The notes under the pieces were generated by a model. It saw only the letters and a list, made by a program, of their open reading frames with translations, did no database searches and was not told where the DNA came from. A program made the position numbers and the translations under genes. A stretch of 64,000 nucleotides of DNA from Pseudomonadales bacterium (GTDB lineage: Bacteria > Patescibacteriota > Microgenomatia > UBA1400 > PJMF01), in the NCBI GenBank assembly GCA_020632265.1, contig JACKFW010000001.1, positions 401,892-465,891 of the forward strand, given 5' to 3'. Of the stretch, positions 3,153 through 23,883 are shown piece after piece. Numbering within the stretch: the stretch's first letter is position 1; every line of letters starts with the position of its first letter.

Positions 3153-3207
3153 CCCTCAACAGGTTGTTACTCGAACTAGAAAGTGGGTTGAACACTATTT
3201 ATTTTTA
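3153..3207. repeat. repeat family copy E1 (partial R-arm plus extension a)
   Basis: CCCTCAACAGGTTGTTACTCGAACTAGAAAGTGGGTTGAAC, a degenerate match to the R-arm GCTCCCCCGACAGGTTGTTACTCGAACTAGGAGGTGGGTGGAAA. Confidence 0.6.
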
Positions 3208-3225
3208 GGTTAAGAAAAGATTCTT

Positions 3226-3738
3226 CTAATTTTTTTTATTAACAACTGGTTCATGTGAAAATGAAGCTTCTCTAATCGCAACTAAATCAGGTTCATCTTC
3301 AACCATTCTCATAATTGTATCTTGAAAAGCTCCAGCAGTAGCATGATATGCAAGCTTAATAAGTGCATCTTCTGTCAAGTTGGATACATCATCAAGAACC
3401 TGAAAAGCGTGATAAAACCACAACATCCAAAGTCTCTCAGAGTCATCTTCATAGTGAATTTCTGTATCATCAAAAATATCAATTCTATATTTCAAAACAC
3501 TATTTTGAGGATTTTGCATATAAGCTACATATGCAGCTTTTTCTGTTGGAGAATATGATTCCCACTTAATTGGCTTGCCAGTCATACCGTCATCAACTTC
3601 CATAAAATTGACTTTAGGAAATGCTTTTCTCCAAGCCTCTAAATCTGATAGCTCACCATGATTTTTAACTATATCAAAAATAATTTGTTTTTGTGTGTCA
3701 AAATCAACTCTTTTTTCTGCTCCACTCCATCTACCCAT
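3226..3738 (-). CDS. hypothetical protein
   Basis: 170-aa ORF flanked by repeat copies E1 and E2. Confidence 0.45.
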   Translation of the reverse strand: MGRWSGAEKRVDFDTQKQIIFDIVKNHGELSDLEAWRKAFPKVNFMEVDDGMTGKPIKWESYSPTEKAAYVAYMQNPQNSVLKYRIDIFDDTEIHYEDDSERLWMLWFYHAFQVLDDVSNLTEDALIKLAYHATAGAFQDTIMRMVEDEPDLVAIREASFSHEPVVNKKN

Positions 3739-3826
3739 AAATACCTTTCAATATTAATATTTAGTCAGTTAAGAATAATATATTTCCACACTGACTAAAT
3801 GTCAAATTATATTAAAATGTTTCAAC

Positions 3827-3993
3827 GGTTCGAGTCCCAGACCAACCTGTCCTATCGGGGGTATATTAGTGAAAAAGATTGGTATATAGTCATAATTAAA
3901 CCTATAATTGTAAAAGCTCCCCCGACAGGTCGTTACTCGAACCGATTTAGCCTGGAGAACAAATGTTGAAAAATATGTTATGGGATTTTTGTT
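3827..3993. repeat. repeat family copy E2 (L-arm, spacer, R-arm, extension b with mini-ORF)
   Basis: GGTTCGAGTCCCAGACCAACCTGTCCTATCGGGGG ... AAAAGCTCCCCCGACAGGTCGTTACTCGAAC ... CCTGGAGAACAAATGTTGAAAAATATGTTATGGGATTTTTGTTT. Confidence 0.8.
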
Positions 3994-4039
3994 TAATTAT
4001 TCTAAATCTAATTGATATATTAATATACAAACTTAGCTT

Positions 4040-4342
4040 TTAATTTTTATTCTTCATTCTTAAGTAATTTTTTCCATTTTTTGCATTAACAGTTTCCTCT
4101 ATTACAAAACCGTTTTGATTATATAAACTAACAGCAGCCTCATTAGTTTCATCAACTTCTAAAGAAATGGTACCAGTAATCATTTCTCGTATTTTTTTTA
4201 AAAGACGAGTAGCTATACCACGTCTTCTTTGATTTTCATCCACAGATAAATCTTGTATATAGAAACCTTCTTCTCTTCTATTTTTTCTAATTTTAGCGCT
4301 TCCTACGACTTTACCACCCTCTATTTCTTCTATATTTCGCAT
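4040..4342 (-). CDS. GNAT family N-acetyltransferase (small)
   Basis: GNAT motif A-like VDENQRRRGIATRLLKKI. Confidence 0.6.
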   Translation of the reverse strand: MRNIEEIEGGKVVGSAKIRKNRREEGFYIQDLSVDENQRRRGIATRLLKKIREMITGTISLEVDETNEAAVSLYNQNGFVIEETVNAKNGKNYLRMKNKN

Positions 4343-4522
4343 AATTACTCCCAGTATGTTTTATTTGCATTATTATAGCAAATTATTTTCATTTAATTAA
4401 CTTCACATACCAAAAGAGTTTTACTTAAAAAATATATTTATCCTCCTAAGCTGCCTCTTTCATAAAATTATATCTATACAACAATTAAAGACTCAGTGTG
4501 GAAATATCTCAATTAAAAAAAA

Positions 4523-4652
4523 TCCCAGGCTAACCTGTCCTATCGGGGGAATATTTGTGAAAAAGGATTGATATATGGATGTAATTAAACCTATAATTTA
4601 AAAGCTTTCCCTACTGGACTCATTACGGAACGGGTATGAGGAAGAATTGCTG
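4523..4652. repeat. repeat family copy E3 (truncated L-arm, spacer, R2-arm)
   Basis: TCCCAGGCTAACCTGTCCTATCGGGGG ... AAAAGCTTTCCCTACTGGACTCATTACGGAACGGGTATGAGGAAGAATTGCTGA. Confidence 0.75.
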
Positions 4653-4695
4653 ACTATTTCAAAAAGAGACATTAATGAATTTGAAGCATATTGTC

Positions 4696-5001
4696 CTAAA
4701 ATAGTCCAGAAAAGAGAAGAACTAAAACTCCAATAGTGATAACTGCAAAGATTGCTATTGTTTTAACAAATAAGTTTACAGCATCTTTTTGCTTTCCTTC
4801 AATAAAAAGCATAAGAGGTTGGTAAAAAAACAAGAACGCCATTACTGCAACAGAAAGGGTAAGTACAAATAAAACTGTGATTGGAGCAAAAAATGTGTCA
4901 GGCTTATCCCTTAACGGTTGAGTTACAAAGTTCATAATTGAAACAACAAGAAATATATATGCTGAAGCACTAAAAGCATTAACAACAGGATTTTTAGACA
5001 T
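4696..5001 (-). CDS. small integral membrane protein
   Basis: 101 aa with three predicted hydrophobic helices. Confidence 0.45.
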   Translation of the reverse strand: MSKNPVVNAFSASAYIFLVVSIMNFVTQPLRDKPDTFFAPITVLFVLTLSVAVMAFLFFYQPLMLFIEGKQKDAVNLFVKTIAIFAVITIGVLVLLFSGLF

Positions 5002-5092
5002 AATGAAATTATATACTAAAATTGCTCTTCATATTAGTCTATGTTTAAAAAATACTCAAGAAATAAATAACTATTGAACATACTGTGCTAAA

Positions 5093-5317
5093 ATGAGTAC
5101 TATGAAATTAACTAACGACAGTTATGTCATAACAATGGGAACAAAAAACTTTACTGAAAAATATTATCGTGATAAAGATGGATGGGTAAAGATATCTGCA
5201 AAAGGAAATATGTTTCGTATGACTGCAGAACAATTTCTTAATCATTTACTTCCTGCTATTGCAGAAGTTAAACCAAACCTGACTTGGAAAGTAAAATATA
5301 TTCCAAAAGAAGATTAG
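5093..5317 (+). CDS. hypothetical protein
   Basis: 74-aa plus-strand ORF inside the otherwise minus-strand array. Confidence 0.35.
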   Translation: MSTMKLTNDSYVITMGTKNFTEKYYRDKDGWVKISAKGNMFRMTAEQFLNHLLPAIAEVKPNLTWKVKYIPKED

Positions 5318-5345
5318 ATTGATTTAATGGTATAAATTAGACTTT

Positions 5346-5426
5346 GCTCCCCCGCCGGGTCGTTTCTCGAACTAATTTAGCCTGGAGAACAAATGTTGAG
5401 AGATTTGTTATGGGATTTTTGTTTGA
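5346..5426. repeat. repeat family copy E4 (R-arm plus extension b with mini-ORF)
   Basis: GCTCCCCCGCCGGGTCGTTTCTCGAACTAATTTAGCCTGGAGAACAAATGTTGAGAGATTTGTTATGGGATTTTTGTTTGA. Confidence 0.75.
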
Positions 5427-5441
5427 AAAAAATGAAGGTGC

Positions 5442-5828
5442 TTATATTATTTGATTAATAAGATCTAACATTTTCTCAGAAAAATCTTGAGGTCTTTGAG
5501 CTATATCGGTATCAGAATGATTTTTGAATCTAGGATCTTGAATTTGAATCATTAATGATTTTAGCCTGTTCAATTGTTCTAATGAACTTTTTCTTCCTTT
5601 AAGAACATAACCCCAAGGCACAGAAATTAAATACGCTTCCGTTTGCCAACCACTACTTTTTAACATCTCGTCTTTTAACAAAGCACGAAGATTCCTAGCA
5701 TCTTGAAGAATAGTAATTTCCTCTAACGAGAATGGAACATCAATCTTCACAGTTCTATCATGTTCTGGAAAATAAAATTCATAAAATGTGTTACCAACTA
5801 CAGGTTCATCATCTTTTCTTTTTATCAT
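5442..5828 (-). CDS. hypothetical protein
   Basis: 128-aa ORF between E4 and the next unit. Confidence 0.45.
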   Translation of the reverse strand: MIKRKDDEPVVGNTFYEFYFPEHDRTVKIDVPFSLEEITILQDARNLRALLKDEMLKSSGWQTEAYLISVPWGYVLKGRKSSLEQLNRLKSLMIQIQDPRFKNHSDTDIAQRPQDFSEKMLDLINQII

Positions 5829-5850
5829 TTTTAAATCCTTAATGTAATTG

Positions 5851-6135
5851 TTAATTACTATAACGAGCTCTTTGTCTCACTAAGTACTCCTTATTAGGAA
5901 ATTCTAAACTCTGATCTGTATACCATTTTTCTAATCTATCTAATAATTCTAAATTGTCCGCATCTGAAAAATCTGTTGACTCTTTTTCGATAATCATTTC
6001 TGTATTAATCATGCTCCTCACTAAGTCAGGAGGAACTTGGGTTGGGTCAACAAATGAATCCATTCTTTGTTTAATCAAACTCAGGTTATCACGATAATTT
6101 TCTATTATTGTTGGTTGTAACTTGTATTCCTTCAT
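5851..6135 (-). CDS. hypothetical protein (start trimmed to internal Met)
   Basis: Track ORF 5851..6186 reads into the E5 L-arm; MKEYKLQ start at 6135 is more plausible. Confidence 0.4.
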   Translation of the reverse strand: MKEYKLQPTIIENYRDNLSLIKQRMDSFVDPTQVPPDLVRSMINTEMIIEKESTDFSDADNLELLDRLEKWYTDQSLEFPNKEYLVRQRARYSN

Positions 6136-6167
6136 ACTAACGCATATTATAGCAAAAAAAATTGAAC

Positions 6168-6300
6168 GGTTCGAGCCCCAGGCCAACCTGTCCTATCGGG
6201 GTATATGTATTGAAAAAAGATTGGTATATAGGCATAAATAAGCCTATAATTTAAAAGCTCCCCCGACAGGTTGTTACTCGAACTAGGAGGTGGGTGGAAA
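6168..6300. repeat. repeat family copy E5 (complete: L-arm, spacer, R-arm, extension a)
   Basis: GGTTCGAGCCCCAGGCCAACCTGTCCTATCGGGG ... CCTATAATTTAAAAGCTCCCCCGACAGGTTGTTACTCGAACTAGGAGGTGGGTGGAAA. Confidence 0.85.
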
Positions 6301-6305
6301 ATTAT

Positions 6306-7475
6306 TTATTTATCACTAACAAACCATTTTCTTCTTGCAAAATATAATATACTTAAAATAATCAATAAAATAAATGAGTTAAACATTAGGGCTGAAGTTA
6401 ACCCATATCTATCTCCAACAAATCCAAGAACTGGACCAAAACCAGCATAGATAAATCTTCTAATTAAATTCATAAATGAAAGTACTGTAGCTGCACGATT
6501 AGTTGGAACAAGTGCTAATACCTTATGAGAAATTAGTGTTTGATTTATTACCATAAAAATACTAAAAAATGCCCACAACGGAATTACGTAAATCCCAGGA
6601 AAAGCTCCTAGTACAAATAAAGAAATAATTGTAACTAAACTCATAGTAATAAATGGTCTTTTTATCAGTTTCTCTAAATTATTTATTTGTGATGATGCAA
6701 GAGCTGCGAGAATGTTAAAACTTGCGAAAATTACACCAAAATAAACCACTGGTACATTTAACATTTGTAAATATGGTTGTGAAAACCAGTTTGTTGACCA
6801 AATTAGAGCATTAAACGAAGCAAAAAATAGAATAAACCATAATACTCTCTTTTCTTTAGTAACAATCTTCAAACTTTCTTTAATAATTTGAACATATTCG
6901 GTTCTTTCTTCCCTAGGAAGCTCTTCTGAAGTTTTGGCAAAAAATAAACTAGTAATAAACGCTAAAAACGTTGAAACTGCGGTCACTAATAAAGTTAAAC
7001 TCAATGAAATTGAACCCAATAAACCACCCAACACATTACTGGTAGCTCTGGACATACTGGAGAGACCACGGACTTTCCCCTCTACATTTTTATATTCAGA
7101 TTCTCTATTGTTTGACTTTAGTGATTCGTGTAAAAATGCACTATCAGCCCCAGAAATGAGGGCTGAACCAACACCAAGAATTAGTTCTCCAATTATAAAG
7201 TGCCAAAAAACGTTTCCCATTCCATAAATAAAAAATCCTAGTGAGAAAAAAAGTGCGCCAAAAACCAAGCTTATTCTTTTCCCAAAATAATCAGCTAATG
7301 CTCCAGTTGGTAGTTCCAGAAAAACTACACTCACTGCATAAATTGACTGCAATAACATTATTTGAGAAAAATTCAGTCCTTTTGATTGCCAAAACAAAAC
7401 AATAACTGGAGCAAAAAATCCTAAGTTATTAAAAAACTGAAAAGAATAGTATTTTTTTTCATTACTAAATGTCAT
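6306..7475 (-). CDS. MFS transporter
   Basis: 389 aa with ~11 TM helices and MFS motif A GALADYFGKRISL. Confidence 0.7.
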   Translation of the reverse strand: MTFSNEKKYYSFQFFNNLGFFAPVIVLFWQSKGLNFSQIMLLQSIYAVSVVFLELPTGALADYFGKRISLVFGALFFSLGFFIYGMGNVFWHFIIGELILGVGSALISGADSAFLHESLKSNNRESEYKNVEGKVRGLSSMSRATSNVLGGLLGSISLSLTLLVTAVSTFLAFITSLFFAKTSEELPREERTEYVQIIKESLKIVTKEKRVLWFILFFASFNALIWSTNWFSQPYLQMLNVPVVYFGVIFASFNILAALASSQINNLEKLIKRPFITMSLVTIISLFVLGAFPGIYVIPLWAFFSIFMVINQTLISHKVLALVPTNRAATVLSFMNLIRRFIYAGFGPVLGFVGDRYGLTSALMFNSFILLIILSILYFARRKWFVSDK

Positions 7476-7505
7476 TTAGTAATTATAGCAGGCAAATATA
7501 TCTCA

Positions 7506-7637
7506 GTTCGAGTCCCAGGCTAAGCTGTCCTATCGGGGTCATATTAGTGAAAAAAGGATTGATTTATAGGCATAAATAAGCCTATAATTTAAATGCTCCC
7601 CCGACAGGTTGTTACTCGAACTAGGAGGTGGGTGGAA
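7506..7637. repeat. repeat family copy E6 (complete, extension a)
   Basis: GTTCGAGTCCCAGGCTAAGCTGTCCTATCGGGG ... AAATGCTCCCCCGACAGGTTGTTACTCGAACTAGGAGGTGGGTGGAAA; 95% identical to E5. Confidence 0.85.
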
Positions 7638-7639
7638 AG

Positions 7640-8305
7640 TTATTTATTCAAAAACTTTTCAATTTCAGACATTACAATATCGCATTCATCCTGAGACAGT
7701 CTAAAATCATGTCCCATGTCTGGCTGACGAACAACGTGTGGGTTTTTTGCATTAGCCACTATTCTTTCTGTATCGGTGGGAGGAATGCTTTTATCATCTA
7801 AAGCAATAAATATCATAATTGGCTTATGAATATTTTTAACTTCATTAGCAGCTGAATATTGCATTCCGTCAGTAACAAAAGCATAAGGAATATCAAAAAA
7901 TCTAAACTTCTCTGAATTATTTGGAAGATCTCTTTTTGAATGTCTTGACTTATCTTTTTCCCAACGCAATGATGGACCAATTCTATCTGGAGGTGGACAA
8001 AGGGAAATAATTCTGGTAACTTCTGAAATTCTAGCTCCTGCAACAATAGCTGTAAAACCTCCTAAGCTATGACCTATTAAAATTATTTCTTCTAGATTTT
8101 GCTTACTGTAAAAATTAACTCTATCTTTCACTTGCTTAATATAATTGGTAATTAAATAGTTTTTTGTATCGCCAGTTTCCCATAAGTGACAGGGATCTAA
8201 TATTTCGACTGTATAACCAAGCTCCCTCAACCTTTTCTCAAAACTTATCATATGTAAATAATCAGGAGAATCTAGGTATCCTGGAAGTAATAATGCAACT
8301 TTCAT
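7640..8305 (-). CDS. alpha/beta-hydrolase fold serine hydrolase
   Basis: Nucleophile elbow ILIGHSLGGFTAIV (GxSxG) plus downstream D/H. Confidence 0.7.
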   Translation of the reverse strand: MKVALLLPGYLDSPDYLHMISFEKRLRELGYTVEILDPCHLWETGDTKNYLITNYIKQVKDRVNFYSKQNLEEIILIGHSLGGFTAIVAGARISEVTRIISLCPPPDRIGPSLRWEKDKSRHSKRDLPNNSEKFRFFDIPYAFVTDGMQYSAANEVKNIHKPIMIFIALDDKSIPPTDTERIVANAKNPHVVRQPDMGHDFRLSQDECDIVMSEIEKFLNK

Positions 8306-8307
8306 AT

Positions 8308-8928
8308 TTACTTTTCCCCCAATCCTATTCTTGTTTTACAAAGTTCTAAAACAAGCGGAAATTCAGTAAATACTCCTCCCATATGTCCTCCCCCTTTAAC
8401 AAAAATTTTACTGCTATTAATTTTGTTGGCAAAATCAATTGCAATTTCCTTAGTAACATATGGATCGTTTTCACTTATGAGAGAATAAGAAACAGGAATA
8501 ATTTTTTTTATATTATCAAAATTAAACTTTTCATTATAAAAATCGCTGTTAATTTGATCAAAAATTGGTACTCCAAGATTTTGAATAAATGGTGAGACAA
8601 AAATAGCTGAATCTAAGTTTACATCAAATTTTGAGACCATGTTTAATACAAATGCTGGAGATAGTGAATGACACACTACAATAAACTTCTCATTTTTAAC
8701 TTTATCCAACACATCACTTTCAAAATAGGTAAACCAATTCTTCAAAGTTTGGTTTTTGGGAATATAATCACCAGTTTGCTCTAATTCTTTTTCAGCAACT
8801 TCGTAATTGTCTACTGGCATTTGAGGTCTTATTACTTCTTGCTTTAATTTAACTAGCTCTTGATCTAACCAAGGGAACCAATTACCATCTCTAGAACCAA
8901 ATGTTCCATGAAGAATTAAGAATTTCAT
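8308..8928 (-). CDS. alpha/beta-hydrolase-like protein (YdeN/RBBP9-like?)
   Basis: 206 aa with VVCHSLSP elbow-like segment; translationally coupled to the upstream hydrolase. Confidence 0.45.
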   Translation of the reverse strand: MKFLILHGTFGSRDGNWFPWLDQELVKLKQEVIRPQMPVDNYEVAEKELEQTGDYIPKNQTLKNWFTYFESDVLDKVKNEKFIVVCHSLSPAFVLNMVSKFDVNLDSAIFVSPFIQNLGVPIFDQINSDFYNEKFNFDNIKKIIPVSYSLISENDPYVTKEIAIDFANKINSSKIFVKGGGHMGGVFTEFPLVLELCKTRIGLGEK

Positions 8929-8958
8929 ATGGAGGAATTATAGCAAAGTTATTTATTT

Positions 8959-9057
8959 GTTCGAGTCCTATCGGGATCTATTAAATCTACTTTAGGAAAA
9001 AAGTGGTGCTCCCCCTATTGGACTCGTTACGGAACGGATATGAAGAGGGGTTGTTGA
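8959..9057. repeat. repeat family copy E7 (short L-arm, alternate spacer, R2-arm)
   Basis: GTTCGAGTCCTATCGGG ... AAGTGGTGCTCCCCCTATTGGACTCGTTACGGAACGGATATGAAGAGGGGTTGTTGA. Confidence 0.75.
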
Positions 9058-9480
9058 GGATTTCTGCAAGTGAAACTAGTGTGATTTTTAAAGAATTTAG
9101 AAATACACTATTCGTTATTTCACAACCAATTTAATAAAAAACTTATTGTCGCAACTCTTTTACTCGAATATACAGGTATTTTAGCTAATGTGTGTTAACC
9201 TCTAGATTCTGAATTTGCACAGTGAATAGCACCAATTAAAACTTCTGACTTATTACCTTGCTTGTTTCATTTTGAAACAATTAACAGCAAATTTCTTGAG
9301 GATACAAAATAATACTTAAGCTGGTACAATTAGACAAGGCAAAATGTGTCATTGAATTATATGACCCCGTTGTAATTATTAAAGAATAATTTTCCAGAAT
9401 ATAAGAAACTTTAACAAAATTGGTCGTTTACTTATAATAAGATGATATAATAATATTGTAAATTATTATAAGGATTAATT

Positions 9481-10023: not shown

Positions 10024-10080
10024 AACTTCCTCCAACCCTCAAATCTTTCTCTAAAGTGACGTATGCGGAATATTAAAGTA

Positions 10081-10142
10081 ACTTGAGGAAAAGTGGTACT
10101 TCCCCCGACAGGTAGTTACTCGAATTAGGAGGTGGGTTGAGA
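10081..10142. repeat. repeat family copy E8 (R-arm variant plus extension a; no L-arm)
   Basis: ACTTGAGGAAAAGTGGTACTTCCCCCGACAGGTAGTTACTCGAATTAGGAGGTGGGTTGAG. Confidence 0.65.
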
Positions 10143-10152
10143 ATTATCTACA

Positions 10153-11085: not shown

Positions 11086-11186
11086 AAGTGAATTTTAAGT
11101 GTGCCTAAATCTGGAACTTCTTTCTACATTCTTCTTGAAATTTTCAAGAATTTCTATTATAAAAGGATAATTATACACGAATGAAA

Positions 11187-11324
11187 GTTCGAGTCCTACT
11201 GGGATCAAACAAAATTACTTGAGGAAAAAATAAAAGCTCCCCCGACAGGTTGTTACTCGAACCAATTTAGTGTGGAAGAAAAATGTTGAGAAATTTGTTA
11301 TGGGATTTTTGTTTGATAAAGTAA
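11187..11324. repeat. repeat family copy E9 (short L-arm, alternate spacer, R-arm, extension b with mini-ORF)
   Basis: GTTCGAGTCCTACTGGG ... AAAAGCTCCCCCGACAGGTTGTTACTCGAACCAATTTAGTGTGGAAGAAAAATGTTGAGAAATTTGTTATGGGATTTTTGTTTGA. Confidence 0.8.
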
Positions 11325-11818: not shown

Positions 11819-11864
11819 TAAGAATATTTTACCATGATAATAACCTTGCTAGAGTCATGAACTA

Positions 11865-11985
11865 AACTGTCCTATCGGGGGAATATTTGTGAAAAAGGAT
11901 TGATATATGGATGTAATTAAACCTATAATTTAAAAGCTTTCCCTACTGGACTCGTTACGGAACGGGTATGAACAAGAATTACTAA
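11865..11985. repeat. repeat family copy E10 (truncated L-arm, spacer, R2-arm)
   Basis: Near-identical to E3: ACTGTCCTATCGGGGGAATATTTGTGAAAAAGGATTGATATATGGATGTAATTAAACCTATAATTTAAAAGCTTTCCCTACTGGACTCGTTACGGAACGGGTATGAACAAGAATTACTAA. Confidence 0.8.
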
Positions 11986-12311
11986 ATATTAATTTTAGTG
12001 ATATCAAAAGTCCTATTAAAATCTTCGGTAACTTACAAAATTCAAGCATTTACTAAACTAGAAGATATCTTTAATTAATTTCCTACAAATAATAATGCAG
12101 GATAACGCTTCATTAATCTTTAGTGTAATCTGAGCTAAGAAATGATGAAATTAGCTGACATTCCCATAATCCAGAACTAGAATCACTCGCTAAAGACCTA
12201 GTAATTGCCATTATCAAAGTCCAAGAGTTAATCGAAAGTATTGGATGTAAATCATACCTAATAGGTTCAATTGGTGCTCATCTGGCAGGAGAAATTCCAA
12301 TTGAAACCTTA

Positions 12312-13130: not shown

Positions 13131-13270
13131 GTTCAATTCGAGTCCCAGGCGAACTAGTCCTATTGGGGGTATATTAGTAAAAAAGGATTGATATATGGCT
13201 GTAATTAAACCTATAATTTTAATGCTCCCCCGACAGGTTATTGCTCGAACTAGGAGGTGGGTGAAAAATT
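13131..13270. repeat. repeat family copy E11 (complete, extension a)
   Basis: TTCGAGTCCCAGGCGAACTAGTCCTATTGGGGG ... AATGCTCCCCCGACAGGTTATTGCTCGAACTAGGAGGTGGGTGAAAA. Confidence 0.85.
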
Positions 13271-14363: not shown

Positions 14364-14373
14364 AACAATCCAG

Positions 14374-14470
14374 TTCGAGTCCTATCAGGCTCTATAAAAT
14401 TTACTTGAGGAAAAAATGAAAGCTCCCCCGACAGGTCGTTACTCGAACCAGGAGGTGGGTTGAAAATTAC
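14374..14470. repeat. repeat family copy E12 (short L-arm, alternate spacer, R-arm, extension a)
   Basis: GTTCGAGTCCTATCAGG ... AAAGCTCCCCCGACAGGTCGTTACTCGAACCAGGAGGTGGGTTGAAA. Confidence 0.8.
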
Positions 14471-16667: not shown

Positions 16668-16726
16668 GGGTGAACATAATATATCCTACAAATAAATCTT
16701 TAAAAGATAAATTTTGACTTTATATT

Positions 16727-16826
16727 GTTCGAATCCTATCGGGCTCAATTAAATTTACTTGAGGAAATAAGTGGTGCTCCCCCTACTGGACTCGTTACGG
16801 AATGGGTATAAAGCAGGATTGCTAAG
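16727..16826. repeat. repeat family copy E13 (short L-arm, alternate spacer, R2-arm)
   Basis: GTTCGAATCCTATCGGG ... AAGTGGTGCTCCCCCTACTGGACTCGTTACGGAATGGGTATAAAGCAGGATTGCTAA. Confidence 0.75.
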
Positions 16827-16907
16827 AATAAATGAGCAAGATATTTTAAAATTTACAAAAAACAATACCATTTATAATAATTAAGTAATATACAATTATG
16901 CCTACAT

Positions 16908-17351: not shown

Positions 17352-17421
17352 CATTTTAAATACTTTATTTTATGGCAATAAATATAAAATTAATAACTTT
17401 ATATAGATCTATTTTATCGTT

Positions 17422-17448
17422 GCTCCCCCTGTGGAACTTTATCCGAAC
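17422..17448. repeat. minimal tRNA-3'-end-like motif copy E17
   Basis: GCTCCCCCTGTGGAACTTTATCCGAAC just downstream of the FHA gene; near-identical to E16. Confidence 0.6.
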
Positions 17449-17461
17449 AATTTGGTAACAC

Positions 17462-18727
17462 TTAATTTTTAACTGAATCAATAAATAATTTGACAAAAGC
17501 TTCTGGCTGTAATCTCTGTGCTGCCAGATCTAGGTTTCCGTGAGGTATTCCTCTATAACCAAGTAACTTGAGTTGTGCATTAGCCAAATTCATAAATAAT
17601 GAATTATTTATTTGATTAAATGGTCTAATAATTGCACCATATTGATACTGTTTACCAATTAACTCAGCTACTTGTTGTGTATCTCTGTTTTCACTATTGG
17701 TGAGCTTTGTAATTTCACTCCCTAAATTATTGATTTGCTTCATATAAGCTGGAATTGCTTCGCTTGATGGATAGAAAAACATATAACCCATATAATCATT
17801 ATTCTTATCCACTGGTAAAAACTCATCAGGTATACCTGCTAGTCTAACTTTCATGTCTCCTGAACTCTCAAATCGCCTAGAGTAAGGATCTCCATATTTA
17901 TTTGCAATAGATGCCACTTCTCTTGCTTGCCTTTCTCTTCTATTTCCTAACCCTCCATAATCAGAACGAAACTGATCATTTTCAACATTTAGAGAACCTG
18001 CTCCAACTCGACCATAAACATCATTCTTATTGGCTATGCCATGTGCTTCTTGAATTTTTAAGGAGAAATTTTCTCCACTTACATCGGAATAAAGTGATCC
18101 ATCTGAAATAGCATCAACAAAAAACTCTCTTACTCTAGTTTGGTTATTTATGTATTCTTGATCTAGTGGTCTACCATCATTATCAGGAGTTCTTGTAAGC
18201 TCATGATTCTCTACCTGTTTTGCAAAAACAGTATTGCCGGCAACCTCTCCTTGTCTGATACTAGAAATCTCATTATCTTTCTTAATTAATGAAGCAACCC
18301 TATTAAATACATCTTTTGTTCCATTTGTGCTTCCTAAGTCAATAACATTTACCCTTCCATCTTTCAAACTCACTTCTACATGCCTTCTAGATACAGTCTG
18401 GTCAAAGGCAAACCTTGATTGGTCAACTCGACCTAAAATAACTTTTTGACCTTCGCGAAGGCCTTTGTAGTTGTCTAAACTGACCCTCATATGCCTACCA
18501 AACTGCAAGATCAAATACGGAGTTGTTATTGAAACACTGGGCGAACTGGGAAAACAATTTGGTTTATCTATCTTGAAAACACCAAACACCTGCTCTCCTA
18601 TTTGAAATGCAGTACTTAGGCCTGCTTCAATTCCAAATGTTTTTTCACAATCCTGAGGACTTAATTCTTTATGGCTTAATACCACATTTTCTTTAGTCAC
18701 CATATCATAATCATTCATACTTACCAT
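17462..18727 (-). CDS. FHA domain-containing protein
   Basis: FHA core GRVDQSRFAFDQTVSRRHVEVSLKDGRVNVIDLGSTNGT. Confidence 0.65.
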   Translation of the reverse strand: MVSMNDYDMVTKENVVLSHKELSPQDCEKTFGIEAGLSTAFQIGEQVFGVFKIDKPNCFPSSPSVSITTPYLILQFGRHMRVSLDNYKGLREGQKVILGRVDQSRFAFDQTVSRRHVEVSLKDGRVNVIDLGSTNGTKDVFNRVASLIKKDNEISSIRQGEVAGNTVFAKQVENHELTRTPDNDGRPLDQEYINNQTRVREFFVDAISDGSLYSDVSGENFSLKIQEAHGIANKNDVYGRVGAGSLNVENDQFRSDYGGLGNRRERQAREVASIANKYGDPYSRRFESSGDMKVRLAGIPDEFLPVDKNNDYMGYMFFYPSSEAIPAYMKQINNLGSEITKLTNSENRDTQQVAELIGKQYQYGAIIRPFNQINNSLFMNLANAQLKLLGYRGIPHGNLDLAAQRLQPEAFVKLFIDSVKN

Positions 18728-18773
18728 AATAACAAATCTACATAGTGTTTAACAACATAATTTACTCATATAA

Positions 18774-19236
18774 CCTGCCTACAGTGCTACCAATGCTACC
18801 AGCACCAGATAACTCTCAACCCTTCTGGACCCTGCAAACATGGCAATACTGGTAACAAAAAGCCCCCATCCATAAGATGAGGCCTTCATTGGCGTTTTTA
18901 AGAAGAACTAACTATTACAGTCCCACACTGTCAGCACCGTAAGCAGCTTGATCAGTGGTGAAACCTTCAAATTCTAGTTGTTTTATAAGGCCATCTCTTG
19001 AGAAGCCTGACAAATCTTGATAGCTTTTAGCTTTTTTAGCTGCCTGCTCATCCCAATCTGGGCTAATTTTATCTACTGCATAGGTAGCATCTTCTGTTGA
19101 AAACTTTTCAAATTCAAGTTGCTTAATCAAACCACTTCTTGAAAAGCCTGTCATGCTGAGATAAGAATTTGCTTTTCTAACAGCATTCTTCTGTGCGGTA
19201 GTTTCGTTGGAAGCTTCTTCAACTTCAGCTCTGTAA
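18774..19236. repeat. segmental duplication copy 1 (3' part of Ltp gene plus 150 bp downstream)
   Basis: ~90% identical to 30490..30950 over ~460 bp. Confidence 0.85.
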
Positions 19237-19253
19237 CTTCCACTGTGCAGCAT
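18915..19253 (-). pseudogene. truncated Ltp-family lipoprotein copy (no signal peptide)
   Basis: 112 aa, near-identical to the C-terminal two repeats of 30633..31100; fused upstream to an unrelated stop-interrupted frame. Confidence 0.6.
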
Positions 19254-19485
19254 TGGACATAAATATCCAGTAATAATACCTACAATCTTTTCACCATCTG
19301 TGCAAACAAATATTCCATAGTCATCTCTATCTAAAAGCTCTGCATAAATATTTCCACCTTGTTTTATGGCTGAATCAGAATGACCTTCCTCACCTATTAT
19401 CTGAAAAATACAGTCTGCTCAAAACTCATCAAGAAGATTAAGGACAGCAACTTTATCTGATTCAATTACTTCTCTTATGTTTACT

Positions 19486-19737
19486 TTATCCATCTTTATA
19501 TATTCCTTGTATCCGTTTGTGATGTTTAATGTTCATTACAGCAACCCAAACAGAATAACTAATACCAAAAAGCCCACCACTAATTACTAAAAAATCTTGC
19601 AATCTTTGAGCGGTAACATACTTATTTACTAAATAAATACCAATAGCAATAGAAGAGTTAACCATTACAGCTTCAACTGCTAGTATTATCTTTCTTCTAT
19701 GTAAACTCTCAACTAAAAACTTCTGTTCTTCTTGCAT
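19486..19737 (-). CDS. small membrane protein
   Basis: 83 aa with two hydrophobic helices. Confidence 0.35.
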   Translation of the reverse strand: MQEEQKFLVESLHRRKIILAVEAVMVNSSIAIGIYLVNKYVTAQRLQDFLVISGGLFGISYSVWVAVMNIKHHKRIQGIYKDG

Positions 19738-19752
19738 TTTTTCCTTTGAATA

Positions 19753-20232
19753 CTAGCTGCTTTCTTTAATAACTTGTTCAACAATAGGTGGCAATCTATA
19801 TTTGCTTCCTACTTCATCAACTAAAACAAAGTCACGCCACTCGACATCACTTTCAGTTGGTTTTTGTAAATCCCCTACAAGTTCAGCGTCATAGAAAAGT
19901 TGCAAGGTTTGATAGTAGTTTCCATTTCTGTGATAAAACCAATCAACGTGAGCCTTCAACAAGTTCCCCATCTTGATCTCAGCGCCACCCTCTTCCATGC
20001 ACTCTCTTTCCAGAGCTTCGGCTATATCCTCACCAAACTCAATCCCGCCACCTACAACGTCATATAGTTTCTCAAGTTTATTTTTGATAATGAGGATTTT
20101 GCTATCTTTTTTTACCAAAGCATATGCAGAAACCCTCCAACTGAGTGGTGAACCATCGTATTCAACAGGTTCTTGATTTGCATCTGAAAATTGTTTATCT
20201 GAAATGTTACTCATGTTACTTTTGCTTCCCAT
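19753..20232 (-). CDS. NUDIX hydrolase
   Basis: Nudix box GGGIEFGEDIAEALERECMEEGGA. Confidence 0.65.
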   Translation of the reverse strand: MGSKSNMSNISDKQFSDANQEPVEYDGSPLSWRVSAYALVKKDSKILIIKNKLEKLYDVVGGGIEFGEDIAEALERECMEEGGAEIKMGNLLKAHVDWFYHRNGNYYQTLQLFYDAELVGDLQKPTESDVEWRDFVLVDEVGSKYRLPPIVEQVIKESS

Positions 20233-20259
20233 TAGATAAAATATTTTAGTTACTAATAC

Positions 20260-20757
20260 TTATATCTCACTTATTTTTAATTTACCAATTAAATCAAGAT
20301 ATACATTAAATGGCTGAGATATAACTTCTTCTGAATCTAAACCTAGTTCTGCTTCGACTTGTAATAAGTTATCACCTACATGACTCAGTATTATTGCATG
20401 TAACCAATCATCAATAAGATACAAGCGCACTAAGCCCTCACTATAATCGAATGTTTGGCTTTCCATTTTTACTTCACCAATTTCTTTAAAACCATGAGAT
20501 CTTAGCCAAGAAAAACCCTCTTTTTTTGTGCTAACTGGAATAATTTCTTTTAGAGAAAAAAGACCATCACTTTCTTCTAAAATATGTATTTCCTGCTTAT
20601 CAGCATATTGCACAAGTTTCGTAACATTATTAGTATCTTGTTGACCATAATAATGGTATGTAAGACTACTTCGTATTGGTAAAACGTTCTTTTGTGTTAA
20701 AAACTCTTTAATAGAATCAAACGACTTAATTCTATATTTCTTCTCTTGTTTACTCAT
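20260..20757 (-). CDS. hypothetical protein (possibly CYTH-like)
   Basis: 165 aa; N-terminal EKKYRIKSF weakly resembles the CYTH EIERKF start. Confidence 0.35.
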   Translation of the reverse strand: MSKQEKKYRIKSFDSIKEFLTQKNVLPIRSSLTYHYYGQQDTNNVTKLVQYADKQEIHILEESDGLFSLKEIIPVSTKKEGFSWLRSHGFKEIGEVKMESQTFDYSEGLVRLYLIDDWLHAIILSHVGDNLLQVEAELGLDSEEVISQPFNVYLDLIGKLKISEI

Positions 20758-20774
20758 AAGGTTATTGTAACAGA

Positions 20775-20900
20775 GGTTCGAAAGTCCCGTTCGGGTACAA
20801 AAAAACTCGAACCTATTTACTTGAGTAAAATCAGTTCGAGTCTACGCAGCTCCCCCTATTGGACTCGTTACGGAACGGGTATAAGGATAATTTGTTGGGA
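20775..20900. repeat. repeat family copy E14 (extra hairpin GGTTCGA...TCGAACC, alternate spacer, R2-arm)
   Basis: GGTTCGAAAGTCCCGTTCGGGTACAAAAAAACTCGAACC ... CAGTTCGAGTCTACGCAGCTCCCCCTATTGGACTCGTTACGGAACGGGTATAAGG. Confidence 0.75.
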
Positions 20901-21054
20901 ATTAGTGAGGAAGATGCTAATTGGTTTAGTGAAAAATTTGCTAGGTTGTTAATTAAAACTAATAACATTACATAGACGCAAAAAGACTCCCTTTGGTTTT
21001 AACCGCAAGGAGTCTTGATGCACATATTTACCAAAAACAATTTTTGAAACTGAT

Positions 21055-21489
21055 TTACCGTTCAATCCGCTCAATTTCTGTGACAATCCCACCACTGTGG
21101 GTGATTTGCCACATGGAATTGATGTTAAAAGTTTTAAGTTCATCCAATGAATTAGGGTGATATGTAAAATTACCATCACCATCTAATTCATCAAAATAAA
21201 CAGAAAAACTCATTTCACGACCGCTTTCACGATGCGTGTCATCAATGCGGTAATCTGTTGGCCAATAAGGGTCATAGTTAGAGCCTGTTGCAACTGCAGA
21301 GCGAATGAAAACCCATTCCCATTGCATATAGGTGTACCAAGTCTCATAGACTGGTTGGTCCACCATGTTTGGAACTTGTCGTGTACGTGGTTCATCCCAA
21401 CAGTCAGGTTTGTAATGATCAATAGTGTCGGTTGTGCCGTCATCATAGGTCACCACCTCTGTGTAGTCATAAACATCTGGACCACACAC
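21055..21489 (-). CDS. hypothetical protein (possible downstream fragment of a frameshifted gene)
   Basis: 144 aa, aromatic/Asp-rich; region is GC-richer than surroundings; separated from the upstream ORF by a frame change. Confidence 0.35.
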   Translation of the reverse strand: MCGPDVYDYTEVVTYDDGTTDTIDHYKPDCWDEPRTRQVPNMVDQPVYETWYTYMQWEWVFIRSAVATGSNYDPYWPTDYRIDDTHRESGREMSFSVYFDELDGDGNFTYHPNSLDELKTFNINSMWQITHSGGIVTEIERIER

Positions 21490-21528
21490 ATGCTCGGTAT
21501 AATTTTCAGTCTTTGTACCTTGCTGAAC

Positions 21529-22299
21529 CTAAATTGTGTGATGCTCTTTCTGTCTAGTCGAAACCAAATCTGCTCCAGCAGGAAGTGACCATCCTTCATG
21601 CTGATTATACTGGTATTCTTGTAAGAAAACCTCTGCTTTCCAACCAACGCTTTTCACCTGCACTTCTGCCTGACGTGGCCAGAAAATTAAAGCCATTAAA
21701 GCAATAAAAAGCAATCCCAAAGCAGGAACCCATACACGTGGGTCTGTAAGATCAAAACCTGTGCTGGTTTCTCTGCGATGAGTAGTCGGATACGAAGTTG
21801 TTGGCCGATATGCTTGAACAGTTTGCTGATGTAGTGGTTCACTCTTCAAGCGAGTTACCGCCCCACAATTAGGACAGGTTCCCTCACTCGTTTCACGACC
21901 ACAGTTGTCACAAATACGGTTAGTCCGAGCAACATCAGCTAACGATGCACCACATTGATTACAAGTTTGGGTTCCAGGTTTGTTTTTGGAACCACAAAAT
22001 GAACAGGTTTCATCGCTATGATGTTGAGCATCAACCCCCATTTTATCAAGCTCATGCTTTGTCAAAGCTGGAGCGTCAGAGCCAGGTTCGCGATATTGCT
22101 CACCTGCATCTTTTGTGTGGCCACAATTTGGACAAATTTTATTTCGTCCTTTAATTCCAGTTGTGCCGCAACTGGTACAGTCCCATAGGGATTCTTGTGT
22201 TTTTACAACAACACTTCGCGTAGAGCCACTTGGCTTGGTTTTACCAACCTTTTTTGGGTCTACAAATGTCCTTCTTGAAACAATTCTTTTCTTTGTCAT
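21529..22299 (-). CDS. zinc-ribbon membrane protein
   Basis: Three CxxC...CxxC ribbons (CTSCG..CPNCG, CSFCG..CNQCG, CDNCG..CPNCG) then TM helix LGLLFIALMALIFW. Confidence 0.5.
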   Translation of the reverse strand: MTKKRIVSRRTFVDPKKVGKTKPSGSTRSVVVKTQESLWDCTSCGTTGIKGRNKICPNCGHTKDAGEQYREPGSDAPALTKHELDKMGVDAQHHSDETCSFCGSKNKPGTQTCNQCGASLADVARTNRICDNCGRETSEGTCPNCGAVTRLKSEPLHQQTVQAYRPTTSYPTTHRRETSTGFDLTDPRVWVPALGLLFIALMALIFWPRQAEVQVKSVGWKAEVFLQEYQYNQHEGWSLPAGADLVSTRQKEHHTI

Positions 22300-22615
22300 T
22301 TTTGCACCTTTATACTTTTAAGGAAATATAAAACCAATAAAATTAGTGAAAACTTTTAAGAACAACACTCCAAATATAAAAAAGTTTTATATTCAAAATG
22401 TTGTTCTCAAAAAAAGATGAATTAAAAATGTAAGTCTTTTGTAAATTTATTAATGTGCAACAAAATATTTAAAGATAACGAAACAAACACCGCTTTGGTG
22501 TATCACATTATTCTTGATATTTTATAGAGTAATTATAGCCTATTTTAGGTAAAAAGTAAATATTATAGGATAGAAAACTCCCTGTCATCGACCAAGTTCG
22601 AATGGCATTTATGCA

Positions 22616-23251
22616 CTAAACTTTACCCTCAATAATGATGTCAAACGAATTTTTTGGCTGTATCTTATCAAAGTAGTAGTTCTCAGCTTCATCCCACTTT
22701 CGATGCCAATCTGTCATAAACACTTCACCTTCTCTTTTCAGCAAGCGTTTTCTTCGTGACTCGTCTGGAAACTGAACCAACACTGAAATATCTGCTAAAT
22801 GAGCTAACTTATCAGCAGAATAAACACCATCAACAACTACAACCCTTCTTGGGTTCAACTCAACCACCTTAGCAGACAAACCCTCCCCGTTTTCAAAATC
22901 AAAAGGATGGTACGTTGCTTGTAAATCAGATAGTAGCGGTATGAGTGCCTCTTCTTCCAATCTTTTGTAATCTAATACTGTATCAACTTTTTCTTTAGCT
23001 GTTTTATTATTCCAGTTAGCTTCTTTGCCCTCTGGTGGTCCTGTATAGAAGTCGTCAACCTTGATAATCACCGCATCTAATTCTGAAAATAATTTTTCTG
23101 CGATACTAGACTTGCCAACCCCACTTCTACCATCTAACACAACAACGACGTGTTCTTGTTGAGAAACAAGTTCTTCAATTTGATTGAGAAGTTCTTGGTA
23201 AGTATTTTCTTTAGACATGATGAAAGTATAACAAAAAGTTCGAGCGTCCAA
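22616..23251 (-). CDS. P-loop NTPase / small-molecule kinase-like
   Basis: Walker A VVVLDGRSGVGKSSIAEKL; probable start at MSKEN. Confidence 0.55.
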   Translation of the reverse strand: MDARTFCYTFIMSKENTYQELLNQIEELVSQQEHVVVVLDGRSGVGKSSIAEKLFSELDAVIIKVDDFYTGPPEGKEANWNNKTAKEKVDTVLDYKRLEEEALIPLLSDLQATYHPFDFENGEGLSAKVVELNPRRVVVVDGVYSADKLAHLADISVLVQFPDESRRKRLLKREGEVFMTDWHRKWDEAENYYFDKIQPKNSFDIIIEGKV

Positions 23252-23345
23252 GTTGGGGTACTAAAAACTCGAACCCGTTTACTTGAGTAAAATTAGTTCA
23301 AGTCTCATTTGCTCCCCCTATTGGACTCGTTACGGAACGTTAATC
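23238..23345. repeat. repeat family copy E15 (hairpin GTTCGAG...CTCGAAC, alternate spacer, R2-arm)
   Basis: GTTCGAGCGTCCAAGTTGGGGTACTAAAAACTCGAACC ... TTTGCTCCCCCTATTGGACTCGTTACGGAACG; parallel to E14. Confidence 0.75.
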
Positions 23346-23397
23346 AAAAAGGTATATTGACAATTATCTATGATGATACAAAAAAGTTTATCTGAAA

Positions 23398-23781
23398 TTA
23401 CTTAGAATCTTCGTTTCTGCCTTCAACATAAGCTGTTGTTTGTTCATTAGGAGTTGAATTGCTTCGTCTAGCTTCAAGAACAGCCCTAATCATATCAGTT
23501 TTTTGTGTATCACCGACATTTCTTTGTGCCTCAGCTAAAAGATCTTCATCGCTTAGGAATCTTATGTATTGCTCATATTGCTCTTGTGCATATTCTGGAT
23601 CACCCTTCGCATCTCGCTGAAGTCTGTGCAGTGCTTCACCATCTTTCACTTGAGTGTCTAGCTCTTTCAATTCTTTACTATCAGTATTTTCGGCCAGTTT
23701 TCTCACCTTTTCACGAAAAGCCGGGCTATGTTGTTCATGCATTTTTGACCACTTTCTTTTTTTTACTATATTGTTAAACAT
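23398..23781 (-). CDS. hypothetical protein
   Basis: 127 aa, charged/helical. Confidence 0.4.
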   Translation of the reverse strand: MFNNIVKKRKWSKMHEQHSPAFREKVRKLAENTDSKELKELDTQVKDGEALHRLQRDAKGDPEYAQEQYEQYIRFLSDEDLLAEAQRNVGDTQKTDMIRAVLEARRSNSTPNEQTTAYVEGRNEDSK

Positions 23782-23823
23782 ATCAGTTCAATTAAGAAAC
23801 TACAACAAATAATTCTACATATT

Positions 23824-23851
23824 ATAAAAAAAGACCTATGAATAGGTCTTT
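23824..23851 (-). terminator. rho-independent terminator of the 30408-to-23892 operon
   Basis: Minus strand: AAGACCTAT-TCA-TAGGTCTT hairpin followed by seven U. Confidence 0.7.
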
Positions 23852-23856
23852 AATTT

Positions 23857-23883
23857 GCTCCCCCTGTGGGGCTTTATCCGAAC
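23857..23883. repeat. minimal tRNA-3'-end-like motif copy E16
   Basis: GCTCCCCCTGTGGGGCTTTATCCGAAC between the APH-like gene stop and the terminator. Confidence 0.6.

Follow-up and report, generated by a model that had tools for sequence, protein, structure and literature searches.

In this study, we analyzed a 64,000-nt stretch of patescibacterial DNA (contig JACKFW010000001.1; hereafter the window), in which a modular repeat of about 130 bp separates short gene units arrayed between positions 3150 and 23,883. This array is probably an accretion island on the 3′ end of a tRNA-Asn gene, built by site-specific recombination of the large serine recombinase (LSR) type. This reading rests on the identity of the repeat arms, on the position of the break at a shared core, on a linkage to LSR genes that was seen in several genomes, and on cargo that is replaced from one species to the next. 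An initial annotation of the same DNA had described a unidirectional array of gene units with recombination-site-like borders and had suggested that a recombinase different from those of integrons is behind their capture. Both ideas were supported: the array lies at a fixed insertion point and is hypervariable between related genomes, and the linked recombinase is an LSR. The two LSR genes of the window had not been tied to the array in that annotation.

Nomenclature and searches

Window coordinates are used throughout. L-numbers (L005, L006, L009, L014, L016, L019–L021) denote stretches from relatives, and P0001–P0120 are homologues of LSR-B, the recombinase encoded at the tRNA-Asn gene. Arms were named in the tRNA's own orientation, i.e., on the minus strand of the window, with P for the R-side arm and Q for the L-side arm of the initial annotation. 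On this strand, a junction is ordered P arm, core GGGGGAGC, spacer, and Q arm. Junctions were numbered from J1 (nearest to tRNA-Asn) to J17 (most distal).

The repeat search covered 2.5–25 kb and recovered the L-arm, spacer, R-arm, R2-arm, and extension families. For Pfam scans, all sizeable open reading frames (ORFs) of the window were used. The pattern of the P1 arm was scanned against 185,579 species genomes (one per species), of which four contigs matched, all from metagenome-assembled genomes of Patescibacteria/Paceibacteria; a separate metagenome scan with this pattern yielded 12 further stretches. IMG/VR was scanned twice, with the arm patterns of P1 and P2, and gave no match; a viral origin of the repeats was dropped after these empty scans. 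Look-ups of cassette proteins returned short contigs only, which carry no neighbor information because they break within the repeats.

The repeat family consists of two mimics of the tRNA-Asn 3′ end

The repeat family is represented at each of the 17 positions listed in the initial annotation, and the modular make-up with shuffled arms, spacers, and extensions was described there correctly. However, five of the copies (3153, 5346, 10081, 17422, and 23857) carry the R-side arm only, without an L arm. The module kit comprises three types of arm (R, R2, and one more), two or three types of spacer, and the extensions a and b, all of which are variously combined. The 8-mer GCTCCCCC occurs 14 times on the plus strand versus 0.36 occurrences expected from shuffled sequences. 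The array accounts for thirteen of these copies, and the remaining one forms the 3′ end of tRNA-Asn at 59443. A 26-mer of the L arm had three matches (0 expected), and the motif GTTCGARTCC was found 10 times (3.3 expected). In the remaining 40 kb of the window, no repeat copy was found besides tRNA-Asn itself.

The relation of the repeats to the tRNA becomes visible on the minus strand. P1 (the R arm; GTTCGAGTAACAACCTGTCGGGGGAGC), P2 (the R2 arm; GTTCCGTAACGAGTCCARTAGGGGGAGC), and P3 (the third arm type; GTTCGGATAAAGYYCCACAGGGGGAGC) all mimic the T-loop and the acceptor 3′ end of tRNA-Asn and share the terminal core GGGGGAGC, which is intact at 13 junctions and present as a decayed variant at four (J8, J10, J15, and J17). 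On the plus strand, the R arm (GCTCCCCC...CTCGAAC) accordingly reads as the reverse complement of a tRNA-Asn 3′-end mimic. The Q arm is such a mimic as well, in inverted orientation; its short form GTTCGAGTCCTATCGGG is nearly the tRNA sequence, and its long form has 15 additional bases. The palindrome noticed in the initial annotation is therefore a pair of inverted tRNA-Asn-end mimics, better read as the two arms of an attP-type site of an LSR, i.e., a tRNA mimic and a relic of a recombinase-gene 3′ end.

In the window, P1 is paired with long Q and with short Q, and P2 with long Q, short Q, and type 3. The P type thus assorts freely with the spacer/Q type, whereas the spacer type stays bound to the Q type. 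Such a pattern would be expected from a crossover located at GGGGGAGC or no more than a few bases away from it.

The tRNA-Asn gene as anchor of a conserved hotspot

The only tRNA gene in the window, tRNA-Asn(GTT), is located at 59443..59515 on the minus strand (ARAGORN; Rfam tRNA, 66 bits), with rpoD on one side and an LSR gene on the other. Its 3′ end reads GTTCGAATCCTACCGGGGGAGC (59443–59464), with the gene terminating in ...GTAGGTTCGAATCCTACCGGGGGAGC; from its sequence, this end can be regarded as an attB-type half-site and the anchor of the island.

In relatives with enough flanking sequence, glutamate dehydrogenase (GDH), rpoD, and tRNA-Asn are followed by an array as in the window, with 67–80% nucleotide identity for rpoD and 63–96% amino-acid identity for RpoD. 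This holds for every scan match with enough flank, among the four contigs as well as the 12 metagenome stretches. Beyond the tRNA-Asn gene, the gene content is wholly different in each species group; common to them are only distant paralogues and one S51 peptidase. The constant GDH–rpoD–tRNA-Asn flank and the unrelated cargo therefore mark a conserved hotspot with complete turnover of its cargo. The S51 peptidase was also considered as a cassette present in two contexts, which was rejected, as the second 'core' in L009 (9626) is intragenic and a chance match.

The sequence past the tRNA core differs in every species group. In L005, L006, L009, and L014, the tRNA-Asn core is directly joined to a spacer or to a spacer with Q arm, followed by cassettes that end in P arms, so the tRNA fills the position of a P arm. 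In L005, for example, the tRNA GGGGGAGC is followed by long spacer and long Q, a promoter, two genes, extension a, P1, long spacer and Q, two more genes, and finally extension b with P1. The spacer type found after the tRNA in L006 is the one found after the P1 arm in L009, and vice versa. Junction modules are up to 90% identical across species as compared to 72–87% among copies within the window: J13 shares 90% with the L005 junction L005_2620 but 80–87% with other window copies, while the rpoD genes of the two genomes share 80% of their nucleotides. Altogether, the standard boundary module was found with unrelated cargo in at least five species.

Linkage of the repeats to large serine recombinases

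The gene of LSR-B (57740..59455, plus strand; Pfam Resolvase, Recombinase, and Zn_ribbon_recom) probably starts with the ATG at 57755; an exact-protein look-up of the version beginning at the GTG start found no record. The gene enters the tRNA at GCTCCCCC, and the reverse complement of the tRNA-Asn 3′ end supplies its last codons (...NRLV-LPR-stop). It belongs to the conserved backbone of an element, here called element B (53933..59450, plus strand), together with a 285-aa protein, PrimPol-B (55177–57432; Pfam Prim-Pol), and a small ORF. Compared with L019, this backbone has 80–86% identical nucleotides, more than the host rpoD with 74%.

LSR-B had 1914 homologues at E < 1e-20, and the named ones are from Patescibacteria. 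Two of them, in L019 and L020 (93% and 88% identity), adjoin tRNA-Asn beside rpoD in other hosts, where the genes run ...GGTTGGT-GCTCCCCC into host-specific, differing T-arms. A third homologue, in L021 (87%), is not located at a tRNA. Past the same GCTCCCCC, it enters the reverse complement of GTTGCAGAACAAGTCTTTTAGGGGGAGC, an arm of 28 nt with the length and pattern of P2, and continues for about 30 more tail codons. The nucleotide similarity between the window and L021 ends precisely at the core end (59450). From this arm pattern and the similarity break, P2 is therefore identified as the outer attP arm of this LSR lineage.

When the 120 closest LSR homologues were sorted by their C-terminal tails, 49 had a translated T-loop (e.g., ...LLPRVDSNHEP), 38 stopped within three codons of the core, and 26 were long-tailed, about 17 of the latter with real native tails. 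The LSR gene crosses its own attachment site (59380–59455; P0001–P0120), so that integration would swap the C-terminus. Uninserted copies have native tails of 12–50 aa, while inserted copies have tRNA-encoded ends (LPR*, LLPG*, or LLPRVDSNHEP). This exchange might affect the activity or directionality of the recombinase.

Remnants of LSR genes were also recognizable in the repeats. Downstream of each R2 arm, the plus strand encodes LPLLDSLRNGY(E/K)xxLLxI..., which can be aligned with native tails (LPLVDAFCNRKIEF...), this alignment of the P2 extensions being weak (three invariant columns, 19–23% identity to the first tail). P3 encodes LPLW(G/N)FIRTI (LPLWGFIRTI at J1), close to the native tail LPVVDYIRTSV of P0117. 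On the other side of the core, the long spacer is colinear with the 3′ coding end of LSR-B (AAAAAGCGTTGATATATCGATGGATTTA vs. AAAAAGGATTGATATATGGATGTAATTA; 23 of 28 positions identical), a score reached by none of 2000 shuffles (J8 and J15), and the short L arm aligns with TTAGAGTCGCTATGGGCTCAA, which codes for the conserved LESLWAQ motif. Its sequence marks the long spacer as the decayed 3′ coding end of an LSR gene. In the L005/L016 array, a truncated, distantly related LSR gene directly adjoins the last P1 arm at the far end, with the reading frame maintained, as expected if that element had inserted first and the cassettes later between the LSR gene and the tRNA.

The geometry of the half-sites fits this assignment. 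Counted from the G of GTTC to the core end, the tRNAs have 22 nt, P1 and P3 each 27 nt, and both P2 and the L021 arm 28 nt. In LSR sites, the zinc-ribbon domain is known to bind a motif that lies 5 bp nearer to the crossover in attB (positions 11–19) than in attP (16–24) (PMC3783163). The offset of +5/+6 matches this shift, so that the tRNA would represent an attB-type and the P arms attP-type half-sites; by the same attP/attB rule, the central dinucleotide would be located in the AG/GC of the core. As the symmetry between the arms is weak, the crossover dinucleotide was placed no closer than this AG/GC, i.e., within about 5 nt.

Proposed mechanism

We propose that a circular element bearing P, core, and spacer/Q would recombine with the GGGGGAGC of tRNA-Asn. 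The tRNA would keep its own T-arm and gain the spacer/Q of the newcomer, while the P arm of the newcomer would become joined to the former downstream sequence. Repeated rounds would push older units off the tRNA and yield hybrid junctions with re-assorted arms. One unit would then consist of spacer, Q, promoter, gene(s), extension, and P. The P arm would be the outer attP arm of an LSR, with relics of the coding sequence of a recombinase C-terminal tail, and spacer plus Q arm would be the inner attP arm, homologous to the last 60–70 nt of an LSR gene.

Two classes of units would take part in this process. The large class would be autonomous, with PrimPol and LSR; its representative in the window would be element B with its cargo and a nested element, 35.5 kb in total, extending to the P arm at 23.86 kb. 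The small class would be formed by about 16 recombinase-less mini-cassettes that keep both attP arms and have their own extended −10 promoter and often a leaderless start. We infer that LSRs such as LSR-B move the mini-cassettes in trans, or did so in the past, with insertion presumably occurring into an attL-like site beside the tRNA.

Several points weigh against this mechanism. The census of recombinases and arrays is limited to the 64-kb window. In the reconstructed attP of LSR-B, the dyad symmetry of the left and right arms is weak. The Q arm is 32–65 nt away from the core in the cassettes as compared to 16 nt in LSR-B's own site, and a canonical LSR half-site of 25 bp is exceeded by this distance. 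The recovered contigs showed neither an excised circle nor an empty site, nor any gain or loss of a unit at the strain level, and therefore the mobility of the mini-cassettes is read from their anatomy. Contigs of one population have an identical unit order, and it is between species that the cargo differs wholly. Finally, canonical LSRs recombine attP with attB only (PMC3783163), while serial insertion needs recombination of attP with an attL-like site.

A more far-reaching version of the proposal is that the array is a serine-recombinase counterpart of an integron, in which promoter-bearing, recombinase-less attP mini-cassettes are captured and released at tRNA-Asn by resident LSRs in trans. 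We consider this version tentatively, as a possibility with the odds against it.

Alternative explanations

The small units could also be immobile wrecks, formed in situ from full-size LSR elements that inserted serially and were later stripped of their recombinase and replication genes by deletions, with homologous recombination between the repeats of 130 bp shuffling the arms and the junctions being kept as promoters. Several features are in accordance with this scenario: the spacers represent decayed LSR 3′ ends and the P2 extensions decayed tail coding, the cores of J8, J10, J15, and J17 are mutated, J8 and J15 form a duplicate pair with 95% identity, strain-level polymorphism was not seen, and the Q arm is bound to the cassette promoter at fixed spacing. 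However, the same combination of extension a/P1, long spacer, long Q, and TGnTATAAT occurs with unrelated cargo 6–10 times in the window and in at least four other species, and independent deletions would not produce identical boundaries time and again. In addition, module subtypes are 85–90% identical across species, whereas the cargo is entirely different. For these reasons, we regard an origin by in situ decay as unlikely, although it is the most serious competitor of the accretion by LSR-type recombination.

Much less probable is an integron in the strict sense, with attC-type bulged hairpins of single-stranded DNA (ssDNA) and a tyrosine recombinase encoded elsewhere in the genome. In common with integrons, the array runs in one direction, its units are short, and its imperfect inverted repeats measure about 130 bp. 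When the ten two-armed junctions were folded as ssDNA, three, all with P1 and an intact long Q, folded better than shuffled sequences (z −2.1, −3.7, and −3.95), but seven gave no better folds than shuffling (z −1.6 to +0.66). The family thus lacks a conserved attC-like hairpin as a common trait, and the corresponding suggestion of the initial annotation could not be upheld, all the more since mismatched arm types are freely combined and non-matching arm pairs are common. As had been noted before, neither IntI nor RAYT is encoded in the window; among the ORFs scanned with Pfam, no recombinase or transposase domain was found beyond the two LSRs, and in particular no Phage_integrase domain and thus no tyrosine recombinase in the 64 kb. 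Instead, homology to the ends of LSR genes is seen in both arms and in the spacer, the core directly adjoins LSR genes in several genomes, and the cassettes carry their own predicted promoters.

The least probable explanation, that the repeats are generic palindromes of the repetitive extragenic palindromic (REP) or bacterial interspersed mosaic element (BIME) type or transcription terminators without a role in gene mobility, agrees with their palindromic nature and their intergenic position downstream of genes, but the copies in the window are confined to the array and the tRNA, those found with the P1 pattern in four contigs of the 185,579 species genomes and in 12 metagenome stretches are all tRNA-Asn arrays where the flank suffices, the window has no RAYT gene, and the hairpins have no trailing T-run, with terminator-like sites not being enriched (6 found vs. 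6.3 expected). The likeness to BIME/REP mosaics drawn in the initial annotation is accordingly not tenable, as the copies keep to the tRNA-Asn locus both here and in all relatives recovered, rather than being dispersed in the window or in the scanned collections.

Comparison with known systems

The closest kin of the tRNA-Asn island are the ssrA genomic islands of Dehalococcoides (PMC3146451). There, a gene for a CcrB-like LSR adjoins attL, which is located at the 3′ end of a small structured-RNA gene, the transfer-messenger RNA (tmRNA) gene, in a strain-hypervariable region, and tandem islands end in a direct repeat of the target 3′ end with a conserved flanking motif, as in our array. Fifteen of these islands lack an integration module and were proposed to be cis-mobilizable (McMurdie et al. 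2011, PMC3146451). In the patescibacterial array, by contrast, the target is tRNA-Asn instead of tmRNA, the units are far smaller (0.6–3.4 kb, nine of them with a single gene), the boundary is a standard module of about 130 bp with both attP arms and a promoter, and a second small serine recombinase of the DsiA/CcrA type was not seen.

Elements of the staphylococcal cassette chromosome (SCC) type, including SCCmec and ccr-less pseudo-SCC at staphylococcal rlmH, are comparable in the insertion by an LSR at the 3′ end of a conserved gene and in tandem composites with recombinase-less units bounded by integration-site repeats, as summarized in PMC3146451. They differ in their protein-gene target, in units of tens of kb, and in having neither tRNA mimicry nor a standard promoter module. 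The hallmarks common to SCC and the ssrA islands can be recognized in our data: LSR genes abut the site at the 3′ end of a conserved gene (in the window, L019, and L020, with an LSR remnant at the P arm in L016), each unit has a distal repeat of the target core (13 intact and four decayed), and the attP motif appears to lie about 5 bp farther out than that of attB, as judged from the GTTC spacing (22 vs. 27–28 nt).

Prochlorococcus tycheposons combine an integrase, a primase/replication module, and cargo at tRNA genes, and newcomers push older elements inward, leaving partial tRNAs and fragmented integrases scattered in the island (Hackl et al., bioRxiv 10.1101/2020.12.28.424599). Tyrosine recombinases are present in 910 of 937 tycheposons, and a minority has a large serine recombinase (10.1101/2020.12.28.424599). 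Element B shows the same combination of tRNA-targeting integrase, primase, and cargo (285-aa protein, PrimPol, LSR, and defense cargo). Differences are that the repeats of tycheposons are plain partial tRNAs, not two-armed attP modules, and that no standard arrays of single-gene mini-cassettes were described for them.

With integrons, the island shares the fixed insertion point, the one-directional series of short accessory cassettes, imperfect inverted repeats, and re-assortment of arms at a defined crossover. Differences concern the chemistry (tyrosine vs. the serine type indicated here), the folded hairpin, which is not conserved here, the expression of cassettes (driven by Pc vs. own promoters), and the anchor (attI-intI vs. 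a tRNA gene). Of four integron characters, the one-directional array by a fixed site is therefore present, and three are missing, namely the IntI gene, attC hairpins, and promoterless cassettes. Accretion is also known from the cis-mobilizable elements (CIMEs) of streptococci, where recombinase-less derivatives gather in tandem with autonomous elements at one site. The likeness lies in the stacking of recombinase-less, att-retaining derivatives beside autonomous elements by accretion and mobilization; CIMEs differ in being derivatives of integrative and conjugative elements with tyrosine integrases, in consisting of few units, and in having no miniaturized standard cassette.

The general principle, i.e., tandem accretion of LSR elements and their recombinase-less derivatives at the end of a small-RNA gene, is thus already known from Dehalococcoides, SCC, and tycheposons. 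A literature search found no paper joining Patescibacteria, LSRs, and tRNA targets. In bacteria of the candidate phyla radiation, which have tiny genomes, the gain and exchange of accessory genes is little understood, and the locus shows a defined route for it. The LSR family is widespread in Patescibacteria and targets tRNA 3′ ends, and at tRNA-Asn it has probably given rise to arrays of miniature, single-gene, promoter-bearing units. If the mini-cassettes are indeed mobilized in trans, this would be an integron-like platform with serine recombinase chemistry and an exchangeable, dedicated accessory-gene rack for very small genomes. As the coding sequence of the recombinase extends across its attachment site, natural attP/attB pairs can be read straight from the sequence, and the many pairs of this family could serve recombinase engineering.

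Cassette units, cargo, and expression signals

The 17 junctions bound 16 recombinase-less cassette units between 3195 and 23856 (minus strand) with sizes of 0.6–3.4 kb. Nine units have a single gene and the others two to six genes, which corrects the earlier estimate of about 25 mostly single-gene units. The majority of the genes are on the minus strand and thus have the orientation of tRNA-Asn. The cargo was rightly called accessory-type: according to Pfam, it includes GNAT and MFS proteins, alpha/beta hydrolases, two APH and two NUDIX proteins, and an FHA protein.

An extended −10 motif (TGnTAnnAT) follows 10 of 13 distinct Q-arm ends, nine times at a distance of 16–19 nt and once at 23 nt. 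Since this box is located at a set distance from the Q arm, the cassettes are predicted to bring their own promoter. In seven cases, the first ATG is located 0–14 nt past the box, suggesting that cassette mRNAs may be leaderless or nearly so. Examples of genes starting 0–14 nt after an extended −10 box and without a Shine-Dalgarno sequence are found at 6169→6130, 7506→7470, and 8959→8925 (minus strand) in the window, at 1610–1645 in L005, and at 9041–9080 in L009. Such starts would imply leaderless mRNAs in this lineage of Patescibacteria.

A second type of predicted promoter was detected inside the long spacers. Six of six contain a sigma-70-type motif (TTGATA/TTGGTA-18-TATAAT) that points at the core and the P arm and is among the best matches of the region (3879–3908, 4568–4597, 6221–6250, 7559–7588, 11900–11929, and 13188–13217, plus strand). 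This predicted promoter is antisense to the upstream cassette gene, and in L005 it would fire antisense into tRNA-Asn.

Extension b (3943–3997, 5373–5427, and 11263–11317, plus strand; about 3650–3720 in L005) contains a Shine-Dalgarno-like GGAG-N5-ATG and an ORF of 13–38 aa in total, the first 11 codons of which are conserved (MLxxLLWDFCL). The extension also overlaps a hairpin (AACAAAT-N8-ATTTGTT) with a trailing U-run (GGGATTTTTGTTT). Extension b could be a small peptide gene or the terminator of an RNA of about 80 nt begun at the spacer promoter.

Structure of the individual junctions

All junction coordinates refer to the plus strand. The first arm past the tRNA, J1 (23857..23883), consists of the R3/P3 arm alone (GCTCCCCCTGTGGGGCTTTATCCGAAC) and is probably the distal end of the 35.5-kb LSR-B unit; J4 (17422..17448) likewise has the R3/P3 arm alone. 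At J2 (23238..23338) and J3 (20775..20876), a type-3 spacer is combined with an R2/P2 arm at 23311–23338 and 20849–20876, respectively, and at J3 an extension c with relic tail coding reaches to about 20975.

The alternative spacer occurs in five junctions. It is found with a short L arm and an R2/P2 arm at J5 (16727..16803) and J11 (8959..9035), with a short L arm, an R/P1 arm, and extension a at J6 (14373..14466), and with a short L arm, an R/P1 arm, and extension b at J9 (11187..11317). J10 (10071..10144) is without L arm and has an R/P1 arm with the decayed core ACTTCCCCC and extension a.

Long L arm, long spacer, R/P1 arm, and extension a form J7 (13131..13268), J12 (7505..7639), which gave the ssDNA fold with z −3.95, and J13 (6168..6301), the junction with 90% identity to that of L005. 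The same modules with extension b in place of extension a make up J16 (3827..3997), and J14 (5346..5427) has an R/P1 arm and extension b without L arm. A long spacer and an R2/P2 arm with a decayed core are found at J8 (11865..11963; core GCTTTCCC), where the long L arm is degenerate, and at J15 (4523..4631), where it is truncated. These two junctions are 95% identical over 129 nt (4530–4658 vs. 11862–11990) and have the same decayed core GGGAAAGC, which points to a putative recent internal duplication or gene conversion in the array. At the array end, J17 (3150..3194) has the most distal and most decayed R/P1 arm (GTTCCCTCAACAGG...).

Further features of the window and its relatives

The nested element A (33756..39772, plus strand) encodes PrimPol-A (33756–36101) and LSR-A (38123–39772), both assigned by Pfam. 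LSR-A shares 24% identity with LSR-B (BLASTP), and at the DNA level the window's two LSR elements are not similar. The tail of LSR-A (39690–39772, plus strand; LRAIDAIRTCVMQENVRFYRLLDAPLS, ...LRAIDAIRTC...) reads through ATTCGAACC and matches the tail of P0004 of the LSR-B family, so that a different core (...CACGGAGC-like) may define a second type of attachment site. The LSR-A gene is followed by a GC-rich stretch, CCACCCCCACCCCACGGGAGGC (39773–39900).

Between the two LSR elements, cargo genes for GmrSD, a DUF2779 protein, a type I restriction–modification system (hsdR/S/M), an AbiU2 HEPN protein, and a DUF6804 protein are located at 39939..53700 on the minus strand (Pfam). The part from 39939 to 53117 is a defense cluster of GmrSD, the DUF2779 protein, hsdR, hsdS, hsdM, and the AbiU2-type HEPN protein, while the homologous element of L019 has an OLD-family nuclease instead.

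A full-length LOOT RNA motif (RF03000) was detected at 53774–53892 on the minus strand with 96 bits (gathering threshold 46.4), just outside the left edge of element B at 53933. It was rejected as a part of the LSR element, since it was not found in the homologous elements of L019–L021. A permuted or split tRNA gene, in which the L arm would resemble a tRNA 3′ half followed by an acceptor-like 5′ end, was also considered for the repeats; it was dropped because a D-arm and an anticodon arm are missing, ARAGORN and Rfam report one tRNA only, and LSR att sites account for the arms.

The tRNA-Asn gene of the window has no intron. In two species groups among the relatives, tRNA-Asn(GTT) is interrupted by a group I intron (Rfam, 107–114 bits), and for this reason these tRNA genes are missed by ARAGORN. 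The introns are located at 1236–1475 in L005, 2409–2641 in L006, 2269–2508 in L012, and 3282–3514 in L017.

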